From Torpedo marmorata (Eukaryota), in the NCBI GenBank assembly GCA_977017645.1, contig OZ360239.1:71548001-71612000 (forward strand): a stretch of 64,000 bases of DNA, in the 5' to 3' direction. This document shows, in pieces, positions 6,643-59,750 of this stretch; within the stretch, counting starts at the first letter, position 1, and every line of letters begins with the position of its first letter. The notes below the pieces were generated by a model that did no database searches, was not told the origin of the DNA, and saw only the letters and a list, made by a program, of their open reading frames with translations. The position numbers were made by a program, and so were the translations under genes.

Positions 6643-9600
6643 TGTGGTAAACCACTGTATGTGTGTTGTGGGCTAGGGATAGGTTTGGACATGCCCTGCT
6701 GACTGTCCCGGTGACTCCTCCCACAATCCCCTTGAATAAAGGCCATTGTGCCACAACTCCTCCCCCAGTCCGGGACAGATCAGCAGCTCGAATGTAGCTC
6801 CATTCTATAACCAATAAAAGCCTTTCAGTTCATATACAACTTCCAGTCTTTTGGGAGTCATTGATAGGTGTATCAATTTTATTGGTTATACTGTCAAATG
6901 GAGAGCGTCCTGAGACCGGACAAGCTGGACATCGATCCGCTGGCACCAGACGCCAGTAACGCTTTCGAACTCTGGCTAACCTGTTTCGAGTCGTTTCTAA
7001 GGACGATCAAAGTGGAAGACGAAGACGGAAAACGCATGGTCCTCATCTCTAGGGTAAGCCCCCGAGTTTACTCGACGATCCGAGATTTTCAGACTTACGA
7101 GGATGCCATGGATGCCTTAAAACGGCTGTATATAATGCCTGTGAACTCAGTATACGCGAGGCACAGGCTAACGACGCGGCAGCAGCGGCCCGGGGAGTCT
7201 ATCACAGAATTCGTACGGGACATACAGTCACTCGTGCGGGAGTGCGACTGCAGGGCGCTGACGGCGGAGCAACATGCAGAGCTGTTGGGGAGAGACACTT
7301 TCGTCACAGGGATCAGGTCAGTATATGTGCACCAGCGACTGCTAGAGCATGCTGACCTGACCTTTCATTCTGCCGTTCAAATGACCCATACGCTGGAGGC
7401 CGTGCTGCGGAACTCGGATGCTATGCAAGCGCGAGACCTCCAGCAGGCCCCGTGGATGGCACTGACCCCCCACCCTGCCAGCGATCCGACTACCGCCGCC
7501 ATCAGCCGCGACCCGACTGCCGCCGCCACCAGACGCGACCCGACTACCGTCGCCATCAGCCGCGAGCCCAAGACACGACCTGCTCCAGCTGTGGTAAGAA
7601 AGGCCACTTCGCAAAGGCCTGCCGCAAAAAGCCGCGAGCGGGTCCGAGCAGCGCCGCGTGCGAGATTCAGGGGCGGCCATCTTACTTTTCGTCACTTCCT
7701 GCGTCCTACCCACCCGCGGTTGCCAACACGTGCGAAGAATGGAGGCGGCCATCTTGGACCTCGGCATTTCCGGCGCCACCATCTTACTGCTCCGATGCCA
7801 ACACGTGCGATCCACGGAGGCGGCCATCTTCTTCAACTCCGACGTCGGATCAAGATTACGAACCTACACTGGCGTCGGTGACGCTCGACCAGAGTGCACC
7901 CCATCAACTATCACGATCGATGATGGACATCCTGGTTGGAGGACACAGAACAAACTGCCTGTTCGACACAGGCAGTACAGAGAGTTTCATTCACCCCGAC
8001 ACGGTACTGCGATGTGGCCTCTCAACATTGCCGGTAAGCCAAAGGGTTGCCATGGCTTCCGGGTCGCACACAACAGACATCCGGGGGGGTTGTGTAGCGA
8101 CGATAGTGGTACAGGGCACGGAATATCGGGACTTCTTACTACTAGTCATGCCTCGACTGTGTGCGCCTGTACTACTGGGACTCGATTTCCAGAGTCACCT
8201 ACAGAGTGTTACCATGCAATATGACGGGCCCCTTCCAGCGATTACCGTTGGTAACCACCAGTACTTAAAAAATACATCCCAGACTACCTGCGGCCTCTCC
8301 ACCCTCAAGATTCCGCCCCCATCGCTATTCACTAACCTGACCCCTGACTGTAAACCTGTGGCGACCAAGAGCAGGCGATACAGCGCAGGGGACAGGACAT
8401 TTATCAAGTCGGAGGTGAGGCGATTGCTTGGGGAAGGGATCATTGAACCAAGCACAAGTCCCTGGAGGGCCCAGGTAGTCGTAGTAAAGAATGGGAGCAA
8501 AAATAGGATGGTGGTGGACTATAGTCAGACGATTAACAGGTTCACGCAGATGGACGCATACCCCCTTCCACGCATTGCGGATATGGTGAACCAGATAGCG
8601 CAATACAAGCTATTTTCTACCATAGACGTCAAATCGGCCTACCACCAGCTCCCTATTTGCCGGGAGGACCGCGCTTACACTGCCTTCGAGGCGGACGGCA
8701 GACTTTATCATTTCCTGCGCGTCCCCTTTGGCGTCACTAATGGGGTGTCCGTCTTCCAGAGGGAGATGGACAGGATAGTGGACCAGTTCGATCTCAAAGC
8801 CACTTTCCCGTACCTGGACGACATCACTATCTGTGATCACGATCGCCAGGACCACGATAACAACCTCCGGAAGTTCCTCCAGGCGGCCAAAGCACTTAAC
8901 CTCACGTACAATAAGGATAAGTGCGTGTTCGGGACCACCCGACTCGCCATCCTGGGGTGTGTCGTGGAGAACGGGGTCATCGGCCCCGACCCCGACCGCA
9001 TGCGCCCCCTGTTGGAACTACCGCTTCCCCACACCCTCAAAGCCCTCAAAAGGTGCTTGGGCTTCTTTTCGTACTACGCCCAGTGGGTCCCCAATTACGC
9101 AGATAAGGCCCGACCCCTAGTCAAGTCCACCACGTTTCCCCTTGCAATGGAGGCACGTGAGGCTTTCAGCCTCATAAAAGGGGACATTGCTAGAGCTGCA
9201 ATGCATGCGGTGGACGAGTCCACTCCCTTCCAGGTAGAGAGTGACGCGTCCGACTTCGCACTGGCTGCTACCCTCAACCAGGCGGGAAGACCGGTGGTGT
9301 TCTTCTCCCGTACCCTTCAAGGCCCCGAAATTCGGCACTCCGCGGTGGAGAAAGAGGCCCAGGCCATAGTGGAAGCTATTCGGCACTGGAGGCACTATCT
9401 CGCCGGCAAAAGGTTTACTCTGCTGACTGACCAACGCTCAGTAGCGTTTATGTTTAACAATCAGCAGCGGGGTAAAATCAAAAACGATAAAATCATGAGG
9501 TGGAGAATCGAACTCTCCACCTACAACTACGATATACTGTACCGGCCCGGGAAGCTCAATGAGCCCTCCGATGCTCTATCCCGAGGGACGTGCGCTAGCG

Positions 9601-11027
9601 CACAGATCGACCGGCTGTACGACCTCCACTGCGACCTCTGCCACCCCGGAGTTACCAGGCTGTTCCATTTTGTGAAGGCCCGTAACCTACCCTACTCCCT
9701 AGAGGAGGTCAGGACAATGACCAGCAGCTGACAGGTCTGCACGGAGTGCAAACCGCAATTCTATCGCCCTGACAAGGCACAGCTGGTCAAGGCCACCCGC
9801 CCCTTCGAGCGACTCAGCGTCGACTTCAAGGGTTCCCTCCCCTCCACCGACCGCAACGTGTACTTTCTCAATGTGATTGATGAGTACTCGCGGTTCCCCT
9901 TTGCTATTCCCTGCCCCGATACCTCGGCCATATCCGTCATTAAAGCTCTTCGCAAGATATTTACCCTATTTGGTTTCCCCAGCTATATACATAGCGACTG
10001 GGGATCCGCGTTCATGAGCGGAGCTGCGACAATGCCTGCTGGCCAGGGGTATTGCCCTAGCAGGACCACGGCCTACAATCCACGGGGTAACGGACAAGTG
10101 GAAAGAGAGAACGCCACTGTCTGGAAGGCCACGCTCTTAGCCCTCAAGTCCAAGGGATTGCCAGTCTCCCGCTGGCAAGAAGTCCTCCCCGAAGCCCTCC
10201 ACTCTATTCGGTCCCTGTTGTGTACTTCCACTAACGCGACTCCTCACGAAAAACTCTTTTCCTTCCCTAGGAAGTCGACCACTGGGACCACCCTACCTGC
10301 ATGGCTGACGTCCCCAGGACCGGTGCTGCTCCGCAAGCACCTTAGGAGTAATAAATATGCACCGATGGTCGAAAGGGTTCAGTTAGCCCATGCCAACCCC
10401 CAGTACGCCTACGTGGTCTTCCCTGATGGGCGGGAAGACACCGTCTCCATACGGGACCTAGCGCCCGCAGGAGCGCCGGAAACCACCCTCGAACACCCCC
10501 TTGTTACAATTACCCACCCCAACACGACACCGCACCCTCCAACAATTTCACTGTTACCGGATGTTCCGGTACCACAAATCAGACAGGAGACGGCTCTACC
10601 ACCTCCCCCATCACCACAGGTACTATCGCCCACCCCATCACCACAGGTACTGCGCAGATCGCAACGTCGTACTTGACCACCTGATCGGCTTGATCTGTAA
10701 CTGTAATATATCTTTGTACATAGTTCATATTTCTGTAACGTATTATTAGTGTTCACTTCACCCCGCTGGACTCTTTTTAAAAAGGAGGGGTGAATGTGGT
10801 AAACCACTGTATGTGTGTTGTGGGCTAGGGATAGGTTTGGACATGCCCTGCTGACTGTCCCGGTGACTCCTCCCACAATCCCCTTGAATAAAGGCCATTG
10901 TGCCACAACTCCTTCCTCAGTCCGGGACAGATCAGCAGCTTGAATGTAGCTCCATTCTATAACCAATAAAAGCCTTTCAGTTCATATACAACTTCCAGTC
11001 TTTTGGGAGTCATTGATAGGTGTATCA
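6643..11027 (+). mobile_element. Ty3/Gypsy LTR retrotransposon, complete structure, recent insertion, inactivated
   Basis: 233-bp LTRs (6643-6875 and 10795-11027) run TG...CA with 3 substitutions by eye. PPT AAAAAGGAGGGG lies at about 10779-10790. The element sits in a poly-C tract (CCCC TSD). Domain order is gag-PR-RT-RH-IN. Confidence 0.97.
6898..10700 (+). pseudogene. Disrupted gag-pol polyprotein of the Gypsy element
   Basis: ATG at 6898 (MESVLRPDKLDIDP); CCHC knuckle CSSCGKKGHFAKAC; protease LFDTGS; RT YLDD; RNase H ESDASDF...EKEAQA; integrase H-H-C-C and D..HSD..E. Lesions: frameshift at about 7570, TGA at 9729-9731 in the zinc finger, a short frame disruption at about 10020-10060 and TGA at 10674-10676. 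Confidence 0.92.
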
Positions 11028-24114: not shown

Positions 24115-24930
24115 TTTCCAGTTTTGGTCACTGTGCTTTCGGAAAGATGCCGTCAAACTGGGGAGGGTGCAGAGAAGGTTAACAAAGATGCCTTGATGAA
24201 AGGCTCAGGCCCGAAACGTTGGTTACGTATCTTTATCTTTGCTGTATAAACTACGCTGTTTGACCTGCTGAGTTCCTCCAGCATTGTATTTTTACTTTTA
24301 TTACAAGGACTTGGGGGCCTGAGCTATAGGGAGAGGATGAGCAGGCTAGGGCTTTATTCTTTGGAGTGCAGAAGGGTGAGGGGTGATCTTATACAGGTGT
24401 ACAAAATCATGAGAGGAATAAATCGGGTGAACGCACTGAAGCTTTTGCTCAGAGTTGGGTAATCGATAACCAGAGGACAGGTTTAAGCTGAGGGGGGGGG
24501 GGGGGGTGAGATTTAACAGAAATCTGAGGGGTAACTTTTTTTACACTGAGGCTGGTGGGTGTATGGAACAAGTTGCCAGAGAAGGTGGTTGAGGCAGGTA
24601 CTATTGGAACGTTTAAGAAATATTTGAATGGATACATGGATAGAATGGGTTTAGACCAGTGGTTCTCAACCTTTTTCTTTCCACTCACATACCACCTTAA
24701 GTAATCCCTTACTAACCACAGAGCACCTGTAGCATAGGATGCCATAGGTGCTCTGTGGTTAGTAAGGGATTACATAAGGCGGTATGTGAGTGGAAAGAAA
24801 AAGGTTGAGAACCACTGGTTTAGAGGGTCATGGGTCAAACACAGGCAAGTGGGACTAGTGTGGGTGGGACATTTTGATCAGCATGGGCGTTGGGCCGAAG
24901 GGCATGTTTCCACGCTGTATGACACTATGT
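24115..24930 (+). mobile_element. CR1 3' fragment with two nested insertions (Penelope pLTR at about 24192-24300; hAT MITE at 24657-24817)
   Basis: QFWSLCFRKDAVKLGRVQRRLTKM, then GLGGLSYRERMSRLGLYSLECRRVRGDLIQVYKIMRG, resuming across the insertions. Confidence 0.85.
24657..24817. mobile_element. Palindromic hAT (Charlie/Buster-type) MITE
   Basis: TIR CAGTGGTTCTCAACC...GGTTGAGAACCACTG. The whole 161 bp is a near-perfect hairpin. The 8-bp TSD is GTTTAGAC/GTTTAGAG. Confidence 0.93.
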
Positions 24931-28072: not shown

Positions 28073-28809
28073 GAAGTAAAACACGAAAATCTGTAGACAC
28101 TGTGGTTGAAGTAAAAAACACAAATGCTGGAGAAACTCAGCAGGTCAAACAGTGTCCTTTATGTAGCAAAGGTAGAAATACATAACCGACGTTTCGGGCT
28201 TGAGCCCTTCATCAAAGTATGAGAAAATGCCGGCAGGCATCCGAACAAAAGAGTGAGGGGGGAAGGGGGGGGGGTTGGCAAAGGCAGGAGATGATAGGTG
28301 GAGAAAGGAGGGAGGGTGCCTGCCGACATTTTCTCATACTTTGATGAAGGGCTCAAGCCCGAAACGTCGGTTATGTATTTCTACCTTTGCTACATAAAAG
28401 ACACTGTTTGACCTGCTGAGTTTCTCCAGCATTTGTGTTTTTTAACCCCATTGTACGCCAGGTGGTACAACTACCCTCTGCCCGTTCTAAACGTTTGTGG
28501 AAGTAATTTCCAACCTCCCCCTCTTTGCTGCTGTCCCCTCCCTCCTTTCTCCACCTATCATCTCCTGCCTTTGTCACCACCACCCCCCCCTTCTCCCCGT
28601 CACTCTTTTGTTCGGACGCCTGCCGGCATTTTCTCATACTTTGATAAAGGGCTCAAGCCCGAAACGTCAGTTATGTATTTCTACCTTTGCTACATAAAAC
28701 ACACTGTTTGACCTGCTGAGTTTCTCCAGCATGTGTGTTTTTTAACCCCATTGTACGCCAGGTGGTACAACTACCCTCTGCCCGTTCTAAACGTTTGTGG
28801 AAGTAATTT
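28073..28809. mobile_element. Young Penelope-like pLTR cluster: one inverted and two tandem copies with duplicated host flank
   Basis: 28115-28236 is the reverse complement of 28318-28441. A second direct copy lies at 28510-28741. TTAACCCCATTGTACG occurs at 28057, 28442 and 28742. Confidence 0.88.
28335..28375 (+). ncRNA. Minimal type-I hammerhead ribozyme motif (PLE-associated)
   Basis: CATACT-TTGATGA-A-GGGC(TCAA)GCCC-GAAA-CGTC-GGTTATG shows core boxes, a 4-bp helix II, a palindromic ACGT helix III, a GUC triplet and a flanking helix I. C3 is U. Activity is untested. Confidence 0.7.
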
Positions 28810-55431: not shown

Positions 55432-58400
55432 TGTGGCAGCCCGCCACCGCGGAGATCGAGCCAGCACACCGCGCGGCGCGTGCGGTAGTAAACAGCGGCA
55501 TAACACACTGTAACGCGACCCTTAGCATAGCGAACCGGCGCGGTTGAAAGCTGGAGCAGTACAAGACCAGCAGCCTTAAAATGGCGCTGGCCAAGCTGCC
55601 CAGCTAACAGGCTGGGGAAGAAGGGTATTCATATGCAAGAATGTTCCCGCCCGCTATTGTAATTCATGCGGCTGATGTCAACCAATCAATCAAACGGCGG
55701 TAACTCCAACTGTATAAAAGAAGCATTTCCAGCCTCAATAAAAGAGAGAGCTTTACCTTCCACACTGCGTGTGTGTGTTTCTTCGTAGCAGTCGGCTACA
55801 ATTGGTGACCCCGACGGTTTAGACGGCATCTAAACCTCGAGATGGATAGCGAAGCAGCGATTAGCGCAGTCGGCCTCAAGCTCCCGACCTTCTGGACAGT
55901 TCGACCCGGCGTGTGGTTCGACCAGGCTGAGGCTCAGTTCCAGATTCAAGGCATCACAGCTGAGACCACACGGTACTACCATGTGGTCAGCGCCCTGGAT
56001 CCAGAGACTGCAGACAGGGTGTCCAACTTCATCCAGAGGCCACCATCGGAAGGCAATTACACTGCCTTCAAAGAGCTATTGACTGAGACCTTCGGGCTCT
56101 TGCAGCGAGAGAGAGGGGCACGGCTGCTCCACCTGGATGGGCTAGGGGACAGATCCCCGTCAGCACTCATGAACGAGATGCTAGCCCTCCTGGGAGACCA
56201 CGAGCCCTGCGTCATGTTCGAGCAGGCGTTCTTGGAGCAGCTGCCCGAGGACATCCAACTGCTCCTGGCTGACACGGATTTCAGCGACCCCCGGAAAGTT
56301 GCAGCATGGGCAGATATTCTGTGGAAGGAGAAACAGAAGTGCTCGGCTACCGTGGGGCTCGTCACGAAGTCTCGCAACCAGACCAAGGCAGGCCCTGGAA
56401 AGGAGCGGCAGGGACGAGTCCAAGGAGAGATGGTGCTTCTACCACCAAAGATGGGGCTCCGAGGCCCGCCGATGCCGGTCGCCCTGCGAGTTCCAGGGAA
56501 ATGAGAAGGCCAGCCGTCGCTGATGGCCACGGTGGCTGGCCATCGAGAGAGCCTCCTGTACGTATGGGATCGCCTTTCCGGCAGACGATTCTTGGTGGAT
56601 ACAGGAGCGGAGGTCAGCGTGATGCCCCCGACAGGTTTGGACACTAGATGTAGGCAAGCGGGCCCCACGTTGAGGGCTGCCAACAACAGCAGCATACGAA
56701 CCTATGGCAAGCGTAGGGCCGAGCTGCAGTTCGGAGGCAGTCACTTCTCATAGGTGTTCACCCTGGCCGCAGTGGAACAGCCACTCCTCGGAGCGGACTT
56801 CCTGCAGGCCCACAGCCTCCTAGTGGACCTCAAAGGCAAAAGACTCGTGCACGCGGAAACGTTCCAAACCTTCATACTGAGGGGCGCCGGGCTCCCGGTG
56901 AGTGCTCCAAAGTGCTGGCTGAGTTCCCGGCAATCCTTTCCCCTCAGTTGATGGTGGAGCTGCCCCAACACGGCATCACATCCTTACCAAGGGTCCACCT
57001 CTCCACGCAAGGGCGAGACGACTTCCCCCGGAGAAGCTTCAACTGGCCAAGGAGGAGTTCCGCAAGCTCGAGGAGTTAGGCATCGTTCGGCAGTCGGACA
57101 GTCCATGGGCTTCTCCCCTGCACATGGTGCCCAAAGCATCTGGGGGCTGGAGACTGTGCGGCGACTACCACCGGCTTAACGAGGCCACCACTCCAGATTA
57201 TTACCCCGTGCCGCATATCCAGGAATTTACGGCAAACCTGCACGGAGCGACGATCTTCTCCAAAGTGGACTTGGTGTGAGGCTACCACCAAATCGCGGTG
57301 CACCCTGACGACATCCCCAAGACGGCCATCATCACTCCATTCGGGCTGTTCGAATTCCTGAGGATGCCATTCGGGCTCAAGAACGCGGCACAGACCTTCT
57401 AGCAACTGATGGACGCGGTGGGCCGAGACCTGGATGGCACCTTCGTCTACTTAGACGATATCCTGGTGGCGAGCAGAACCCGGCAGGAACATCTACAACA
57501 CCTCCGAAGCCTCTATAGTTGCCTATGTGAGTTCGGCCGTACTATCAACCTGGCTAAATGCCAGTTTGGGCTGAGCACGATTGACTTCCTGGGCCACAGG
57601 ATTACCAAATGCGGGGCCACTCCACTACCCAGCAAGGTGGAGGCTATCCGCAACTTCCTGAGGCCCAGTACGACCAAAGGACTGCAGGAGTTTGTGGGGC
57701 TGGTCAACTTTTATCGCAGATTCATCCCCGCAGCTGTTTGAACCATGCGCCCACTCTTCACCCTGATGACCGGCAAGGCGAAGGACTTGACCTGGACGAC
57801 GACTCTGCACGAGCATTCGTGGAAGCGAAGGAAGCCCTGGCCGACCCCAGGTCAGACGCACCCACAGCCCTCACGGTCGATGACTCAGGAACGGCGATTG
57901 GTGGAGTTCTGGAGCAGCAGATAGAAGGAAGTTGGCGTCCACTAGCTTTCTTCAGCAAACATCTGCGGCCCCCTGAGCTAAAGTACAGTGCTTTCGACAG
58001 AGAGGTACTGGTGCTGTACTTAGCCATCCGCCACTTCTGGTACTTCCGAGAGGGAAGGGCTTTCACGAACCACAAGCCACTGACGTTCGCTCTGGCCAAG
58101 ATCTCCGTTCCCTGGTCAACCCACCAGCAGAGTCACTTGTCTTACATCTCGGAGTACACCACCGACGTAAGGCACATCTCGGGAAAAGACAACGTGGTCG
58201 CAAACGCCTTGTCGAGACCGAGCATCCACTCTCTGGCTAACGGACTGGATTTCGTGGCACTGGCACAGCAGCAGGACGACGAGATGCCTCAGTACAGGAC
58301 CGCCGTCACGGGGCTGCAGCTTCAGGACATCCCAGTCGGCACAGGTAACACTACCCTCCTGTGCGACATGGCCAATGGGCAGCTTCGACCTATCGTCCCA

Positions 58401-59750
58401 ATGGCATGGAGGCAACGAGTTTTCGACTCCATTCACGGGCTGGCACATCCATCAATCAGGACCATGGTCCGGTTGGTGGTCAGCAAGTACGCGTGGCATG
58501 AATTGTGGAAACAAGTCAGCGGGTGGGCCAAGACATGCACACAGTGCCAAACAGCCAAGGTCTCCCCGCAGCCTTTTGAGCCAACAGAGTGAAGGTTTGA
58601 CCACATTCACGTAGACATAGTGGGACCCTTACCAGTCTCACAGGGTTTCTGCTACCTGTTCACGATGGTCGACCGTTTCACCTGGTGGCCAGAAGCAATC
58701 CCCCTGGCCGACACATCCACCAGGTCCTGCACCAAGGCACTCGTCTCGTCCTGGGTAGTATGGTTCGGGCTACCGCGCCACATAAACTCCGACAGAGGCG
58801 CACAATTTACCTCCAGCCTGTGAACCGACATTGCCAACCTGTGGGGCACTCAGCTACACCACATGACAGCATACCACCCGTAGTCTAACGGGCTGGTTGA
58901 GTGCTTCCACAGGCACCTCAAGGCCGCCCTTATGACCAGACTCAAGGGCTCCAACTGGGTTGACGAACTGCCATGGGCACTGCTGGGGATTCGTACAGCC
59001 CCGAACGAAGACCTCCACACATCCTCCGCCGAGCTCGTCTACGGAGCTCCACTCATGGTCCCCGGGGATTTCGTCCCACCAGCCAGAGGTCAACAGGAGG
59101 ATACAACCACCTTCCTGGACAGGCTGCGGGAAAAGGTCAGTAACCTGGCTCCGATCCCAACCTCCAGACACGGGCAAGCCAAGTTCAACATCCCTAAAGA
59201 ACTCCAAGATTGTGAGTATGTGTTCGTACGCAGAGGGCCACACTGTCCACCGCTACAGAAACCCTTTGAAGGCCCCTTCCGAGTTGTCTGGAACAACGGG
59301 GCCACCTTCAAACTGGACATCGGTGGCAAACCAGAGGTCTTCACTGCAGACAGGTTCAAGCCGGCACACACAGACCCGACACAACCCGTGGAGACGCCAG
59401 CACCTCGGCGCAGAGGCAGACCACAAAAGACATTGGGGACTGCATCCATGGACACTATGAACTGTAGCGCCGGTTCTGGGGAGGGGGGGGCATGTGGCGT
59501 CCCGCCACCGCGGAGATTGAGCCGGCGCGGCGCGCGTGGTAGTAAACAGCGGCATAACACACTGTAATGCGATCCTTAGCATAGCGAACCGGCGTGGTTG
59601 AAAGCTGGAGCAGTACAAGACCAGCAGCCCTAAAATCAGCCAAACGGCGTGAACTCGAACTGTATGAAAGAAGCATTTCCAGCCTCAATAGAGCAGAGAG
59701 CTTAACCTTCCACACTGCGTGTGTGTGTTTCTTCGTAGCAGTCGGCTACA
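55432..59750 (+). mobile_element. Ty3/Gypsy LTR retrotransposon, CsRn1-like clade, decayed
   Basis: LTRs at 55432-55800 and 59493-59750 (TG...CA); TSD CTAT; PBS TGGTGACCCCGACG (tRNA-Trp) at 55803; G-rich PPT at about 59478-59490. Confidence 0.96.
55842..59490 (+). pseudogene. Disrupted gag and pol of the CsRn1-like element
   Basis: Gag LKLPTFW..PGVWFDQAEAQF; CHCC motif CFYHQRWGSEARRCRSPC; protease FLVDTGAEVSV; RT FVYLDDILV; RNase H; integrase HxxxHP..CTQC, HINSDRG and GPF module. Multiple stops and frameshifts. Confidence 0.92.

Follow-up and report, generated by a model that had tools for sequence, protein, structure and literature searches.

How does a Gypsy element prime reverse transcription when no tRNA-type site adjoins its 5′ LTR? 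The question is raised by an element at positions 6643 to 11027 of the 64,000-nt stretch of ray DNA that we analyzed (the window, to which all positions refer). It has the TG...CA LTRs, the polypurine tract and the gag-protease-reverse transcriptase (RT)-RNase H-integrase order of a Ty3/Gypsy LTR retrotransposon (Table 1). Pfam matches were obtained for gag, protease, RT, RNase H and integrase, and the solved structure that matched best was Ty3 RT (E value of 2e-51). The element is young, though broken, and belongs to a family with a high copy number in a genome of 6.2 Gb. Its two LTRs differ at three positions, all of them C/T, and CCCCC flanks both ends of the element. In this copy gag and pol are out of frame, with the break near 7560-7590 (relatives have one ORF), an in-frame stop lies at 9729-9731 within the integrase zinc finger, and an off-pattern stretch of the integrase near 10020-10060 suggests local frameshifts. 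A first, sequence-only reading of this DNA had described a Pro-rich integrase end, VLRRSQRRT, without a chromodomain. The integrase ORF (9732-10676) indeed ends in this way, and no Pfam match to a chromodomain was obtained for the window copy, for any of 34 members of the lineage described below or among the 120 best protein matches.

Table 1. Features of the Gypsy element in the window
Feature	Position	Strand	Remark
5′ LTR	6643..6875	+	233 bp, TG...CA
Initiator-like CCATTCT, candidate start region	6800..6806	+	directly before the primer segment; putative
Predicted self-primer, 14 nt	6806..6819	+	contains AATAAA at 6813-6818
Predicted cut AAA/GCC	6819..6820	+	by analogy with Tf1; one base earlier possible
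R-U5 hairpin	6820..6869	+	GCCT 6820-6823 with AGGT 6866-6869, lineage-wide
R-U5 hairpin, further stems	6825-6829 with 6860-6864; 6839-6843 with 6854-6858	+	host subfamilies
1-nt spacer (A) after terminal CA	6876	+	read from the sequence
Primer-binding site	6877..6890	+	exact complement of 6806-6819
gag	6898..7590	+	ATG 7 nt 3′ of the primer site
Zinc knuckle, protease, RT, RNase H	7580..9731	+	ORF translation, Pfam
Integrase, Pro-rich tail	9732..10676	+	without chromodomain
Polypurine tract	10779..10790	+	read from the sequence
3′ LTR	10795..11027	+	233 bp, TG...CA

Primer-site self-complementarity in the window

The 14 nt at 6877-6890, which begin one base after the 5′ LTR, are the exact reverse complement of LTR positions 6806-6819, and a TGG-type primer site is absent from this junction. 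Both points had been made in the sequence-only reading, and both were borne out. Dinucleotide shuffling of the LTR gave no match of at least 14 nt in 20,000 shuffles (the maximum of 13 nt was reached once), and matches longer than 11 nt were found for none of 3,872 interior 22-mers and for none of 59,399 other 22-mers of the window. Complementarity between LTR and primer site is the criterion for self-priming in the methods of PMC6317226; taken as a site that is complementary to at least 10 nt of the LTR and lacks TGG, this feature was present in the window copy and in its lineage. Two TGG-type elements of the same genome displayed self-matches of only 6 nt. The comparison with host tRNAs that the earlier reading had called for points the same way within a partial sample of 28 distinct sequences representing 9 anticodons: the site matched these tRNAs over at most 7 nt internally and over 1 nt at the 3′ end. 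A positive control gave no signal because this sample lacked tRNA-Trp.

The window and the genome contain further repeats. A second, decayed Gypsy element on the plus strand (55432-59750) carries a TGG tRNA-Trp-type site from 55803 and a 4-bp target duplication; it was placed as CsRn1-type, and similar copies were found elsewhere (L264-L266, L268). Since CsRN1 is described from metazoans excluding vertebrates in the available text of PMC3601003, the abundance of CsRn1-type elements in the host ray is noteworthy. Gmr1-type elements with the integrase before the RT and with TGG primer sites are abundant in the host as well (L154-L165, L167). Positions 2394-2800 of the window comprise an array of a 30-nt unit (2421-2706) between 52-nt inverted repeats and are MITE-like. 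Two other, long inverted repeats were observed, one at 24652-24822 with 84-nt arms that are 3 nt apart and one at 28112-28744 with arms of 131-162 nt that result from head-to-head short repeats.

Covariation of the LTR segment and the primer site

Querying the host genome with LTR-gag sequence yielded 2,102 candidates, of which the 40 that were scored were 99-100% identical, while gag queries yielded 55,543 and 61,235 rough candidates. Among the best 30 copies of the element's own family, the 14-nt match was kept in 28, was reduced to 12 nt in one and to 7 nt in one. In 17 alignable copies of sister subfamilies, which were selected on the presence of a match and are mutually related, 237 of 238 cells were paired; both sides had changed at 7 of the 14 pairs, and no pair had changed on one side only. 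An unselected host group consisted of 34 loci, 6 of which were unalignable or deleted. The remaining 28 were perfectly paired over 14 nt in 22 cases, with one mismatch in 4 and two mismatches in 2. These copies displayed 7 distinct paired haplotypes and not a single G-U pair in 28 by 14 cells, and beyond pair 14 or 15 the pairing broke off abruptly. In a second host family, primer and site match over 18 bp. Twelve mismatched host copies were fetched, and of the 8 that were informative, 4 carried the change on the primer side in the 5′ LTR only and 4 on the site side with matching LTRs. Mismatches limited in this way to one partner of the pairing are consistent with damage after insertion.

Relatives from metagenomes and metagenome-assembled genomes (MAGs) extended this picture. 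Of 88 loci, the gag start was missing from 36 and the upstream sequence was too short in 6, which left 46 testable loci. Under a blind rule, a perfect complement of 10-19 nt between LTR and leader was found in 41 of these 46, with differing letters; among the shuffles made as a control for this rule, 7 of 564 reached at least 10 nt. Among the five misses, four seem to be damaged copies whose families have other, intact members, and in the fifth the LTR was not recognized. Across 29 representative junctions, the primer of a family matched its own site at 10 of 10 positions in 27, compared to 7 of 812 pairings with a foreign site. Covariation of primer site and LTR segment, a check that the sequence-only reading had proposed, was thus found lineage-wide and with different letters. 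The self-complementary primer site is a real, lineage-wide feature.

These results also bear on priming by a host tRNA or half-tRNA, with the LTR match being incidental. The incomplete tRNA sample (28 sequences, 9 anticodons) leaves some room for such a primer; against it stand the weak matches of the sampled tRNAs, the lack of TGG at the junctions described below, and the presence of at least 7 primer-site sequences within one host subfamily group, each of which is tracked by its LTR. We give this explanation a probability close to nil.

Full-length elements of the lineage measure about 4.0-4.7 kb, show 5-bp target duplications where these are visible, and have a single ORF of about 1180-1340 amino acids behind a very short leader. 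A double zinc knuckle was present in 69 of 70 full-length proteins. Among the matches listed, the closest named proteins were those of rays and catsharks (81-88% identity over RT-RNase H). Named relatives at 53-64% came from corals, an anemone, a damselfly, a cockroach, Trichinella, Trichuris, a prawn (partial match) and hagfish; these are known as proteins, and their primer sites are not part of the junction counts. No relatives were found in viral contigs. Several members of the animal lineage are filed in bacterial MAGs (L111-L118, P0010, P0059), likely through host contamination, and two of the proteins filed in this way carry the name DDE integrase/transposase. Three contigs of about 3.9-4.1 kb (L043, L111, L115) had ends that overlap within the ORF and only one LTR each, which suggests collapsed repeats or one-LTR circles.

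Junction architecture and a candidate priming route

Junction anatomy was compared in 52 distinct junctions, which were picked for having a match and are not independent. The primer ended in AAA at its 3′ end in 46 of them, followed by GCC or ACC (RCC) in 37; the site began one base after CA in 49, and a TGG primer site was found in none. A stem starting from the base after the primer (AAA/RCC...GGY) had a mean length of 4.4 bp compared to 2.9 ± 0.15 bp in shuffled junctions. The first pair of the GCCT/AGGT stem occurs in GC, GU and AU versions among sister copies, and the neighboring stems contained 34 G-U cells of 231, whereas the primer helix was without shared G-U. The conserved AAA/RCC...GGY stem likely marks the probable cut. 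Self-priming of Tf1 involves an additional U5 stem structure (U5-IR) beside the primer duplex. A different U5-leader stem, TTGATAG/CTGTCAA, had been put forward in the sequence-only reading; it pairs in the window copy, but 53% of its cells paired in 17 sister copies, which equals the shuffle mean, and no two-sided change was seen. This candidate was therefore rejected.

Judged by analogy, there is a high likelihood that the lineage works like Tf1, in which the first 11 bases pair with the primer site and are severed from base 12 by RNase H (PMC7175516). The RNA of the window element would start at or just before 6806, and its segment 6806-6819 would fold onto 6877-6890 and abut the GCCT/AGGT stem; these pairings are backed by covariation or conservation. 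The element's own RNase H would cut between AAA and GCC, or one base earlier, and RT would extend the resulting end by about 57 nt through U5 before jumping to the 3′ R. Plus-strand synthesis would then copy the retained primer and so rewrite the primer site, which could be the reason why the shared changes are strictly Watson-Crick. An intermediate of such copying, with a new primer in both LTRs and an old site, was not clearly seen among the 8 informative mismatched copies.

The start of the RNA deserves separate consideration. The CCATTCT at 6800-6806 is what we take to be an initiator-like sequence, and CCATTC was mostly retained in sister subfamilies among the host copies. A TATA box was missing from -25 to -35 in all 29 representative junctions, so that the RNA may begin elsewhere than at the primer. 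In several families (L065, L070, L090, L096), a pyrimidine tract ending in CAG and resembling a splice acceptor lies about 13-26 nt upstream of the primer; such tracts could reflect a spliced or trans-spliced leader and an internal primer. The same LTR segment might prime from its copy in the 3′ R, from inside a longer 5′ leader, or in trans via short LTR transcripts. This would fit with its presence in both LTRs and with the lack of a TATA box pinning the start at the primer, and thousands of copies could yield short transcripts. We nevertheless regard these sources as highly improbable, given that the RCC/GGY stem needs the U5 end, which in the window family would be missing from a polyadenylated 3′ R, and that the helix has a sharp outer edge, as would be expected at an RNA 5′ end.

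The primer segment of the window copy overlaps AATAAA, as the sequence-only reading had observed. Across the lineage this holds in part: of the 29 representative junctions, 17 had a canonical poly(A) hexamer (AATAAA or ATTAAA) within the primer and 2 had one downstream of it, while the other 10 had none. In the window family the same pairing may hide the AATAAA of the 5′ LTR, and in about 60% of junctions it could plausibly have hiding of the 5′ signal as a secondary function. Taken further, the pairing could be a regulatory hairpin that hides the 5′ LTR poly(A) signal or controls gag translation, with another RNA serving as the primer. The 17 segments with a hexamer and the position of the helix, whose end is no more than about 30 nt away from where gag is estimated to start, are in line with this explanation. 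Twelve of the 29 junctions, however, pair without a canonical hexamer in the segment, the 3′ arm always occupies the primer-site position with no other primer site present, and the lack of shared G-U sets the primer helix apart from the stems next to it. We therefore consider a purely regulatory hairpin improbable and favor cleavage of the LTR segment and its use as a primer.

Phylogenetic placement and comparison with known systems

Trees were built from subsets of sequences in which proxies were labeled on the basis of primer sites, Pfam domains, characteristic motifs and automatic names, and did not include named Tf1, sushi-ichi, Mag or Cigr-1 sequences. The chromovirus proxies were taken from protein searches. 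Searches of the host genome by the chromodomain, SH3_Tf2-1 and DUF4939 families yielded no chromovirus: none of the 4 loci extended from the chromodomain search had an RT, SH3_Tf2-1 led to Gmr1-type elements, and DUF4939 led to nothing. RT-RNase H identity was 45-86% among members of the lineage and 22-38% between them and all other rows. In the 52-row RT-RNase H tree, the lineage was supported with 100/100 and the chromoviruses stood apart with 100/97, including a fungal-plus-vertebrate Tf1/sushi-like subgroup (100/100). The sister of the lineage comprised three rows (L262, L267, P0262) that we presume to be Mag-type from their motifs, with support of 98/98. A 28-row tree under a mixture model agreed, with a support of 96 for the Mag-type sister. 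In these trees the Mag-type rows are sister to the lineage, which is not nested among them. The integrase tree disagrees: it placed the lineage outside the chromovirus branch on a long branch, without a resolved sister and not joined to L262.

The RT phylogeny proposed in the sequence-only reading supported a separate position in part. In the 28-row tree, union of the lineage with the Tf1/sushi-like rows was rejected (AU test, P = 0.021), whereas union with all chromoviruses was not (P = 0.21); the groups tested consist of proxies and were defined once an earlier tree had been seen. By the tests made here, the lineage appears to lie outside the Tf1/sushi group. Self-priming might still be genuine but go back to an ancestor shared with the chromoviruses, the lineage being a fast-evolving sister group that lacks the chromodomain. 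The P value of 0.21, the long stem branch of the lineage (0.87-1.9), a geometry equal to that of Tf1 and the absence of a resolved sister in the integrase tree would all agree with common inheritance. On the other side, identity to chromovirus-type rows over RT-RNase H was 25-34% and not above that to other Gypsy rows, the best trees join the lineage to the Mag-type rows, and the Tf1/sushi-like union was rejected. The double zinc knuckle of 69 of 70 proteins is also found in the Mag-type P0262, and plant chromoviruses mostly use tRNA-Met according to the relevant text of PMC6317226. We consider inheritance from a chromovirus ancestor unlikely.

It is instead probable, on the analogy with Tf1, that the lineage primes reverse transcription with a segment of its own LTR that is cut from its own RNA, an ability likely gained separately from Tf1/sushi. 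A more far-reaching scenario is offered tentatively, as we give it somewhat less than an even chance. A metazoan-wide lineage with tens of thousands of host copies would have left tRNA priming independently of Tf1/sushi, and a poly(A)-signal segment would have become the primer. One fold would both hide the 5′ poly(A) signal and present AAA/RCC to RNase H, and the primer would rewrite its site in each cycle, leaving the pair to drift freely.

Gypsy self-priming has so far been described for chromoviruses related to Tf1/sushi, and a second widespread animal lineage, with proteins named from rays, sharks, hagfish, corals, insects, nematodes and a prawn, would show that tRNA priming can be replaced repeatedly. 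Dozens of natural variants would define what RNase H needs for cutting a primer from an RNA duplex. For annotation, pipelines that require a tRNA site miss or mis-score the lineage. Fragments of tRNAs can repress retroelements through the tRNA primer site, and the lineage would lack the site that these fragments use.

The literature on priming and clades that we covered (PMC3601003, PMC6317226, PMC5006619, PMC2582038, PMC5445492, PMC6238403, PMC8556966, PMC3670739, PMC4600332, PMC5341516, PMC2774666, PMC6934838, PMC2864245, PMC7175516 and PMC8220671) describes self-priming of Tf1, Tf2 and Tj1, of elements related to sushi, of Tcn1 and of the copia TAR lineage, as well as other non-tRNA primer sites in Skipper and fungal GalEa. 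For animal Gypsy clades outside the chromoviruses, no report of self-priming was found in the literature searched, whose scope did not extend to key older papers or to Repbase/GyDB. As in the lineage, self-priming of Tcn1 chromoviruses and of TAR (Houba/Osr-1) copia elements was predicted from complementarity between LTR and primer site (PMC6317226). Tcn1 (a plant/fungal chromovirus) and TAR belong to lineages different from the one studied here, and because the TAR copia elements show the trait, self-priming can occur outside Tf1/sushi. The CsRn1 clade, for which PMC2582038 describes a tRNA-Trp site, a CHCC gag motif and a 4-bp target duplication, differs from the lineage, which has no TGG, carries CCHC knuckles, shows 5-bp duplications where visible and forms a separate branch.

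With the Mag lineage (SURL/K02A2.6-like; L262, L267, P0262), the elements share a two-knuckle gag, as in P0262, and the absence of a chromodomain. In contrast to the lineage, L262 has a TGG-type site; identity to the Mag-type rows over RT-RNase H is about 29-34%, the knuckle pattern is unmatched in L262, and the integrases do not group. Cigr-1 of Ciona intestinalis has LTRs of about 245 bp, one 3.6-kb ORF and a gag resembling that of the sea-urchin SURL/Tgr1. This anatomy seems to us to fit the lineage, which may be the Cigr-1 clade, and the pairing has perhaps already been remarked on. Cigr-1 is listed both under Mag and as a small mollusc/annelid clade (PMC6238403, supplements 1, 3 and 4; PMC8556966), and the words "PBS" and "primer" are absent from the main texts of both papers. 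The lineage may just as well correspond to a MolGy or an LGF clade.

With Tf1/Tf2 of Schizosaccharomyces pombe, Tj1 of S. japonicus (PMC4600332) and the Tf1/sushi elements, the lineage shares the lack of a tRNA site, a primer site that complements its own 5′ LTR, and the Gypsy domain order. Unlike Tf1/sushi, it falls outside that group in the RT-RNase H and integrase trees, with an identity of 25-34% and without a chromodomain, and it combines a length of about 4.0-4.7 kb with a single ORF, a very short leader and a double zinc knuckle. Its predicted primer of 10-19 nt also differs from that of Tf1, as it ends in AAA and often holds a poly(A) hexamer.
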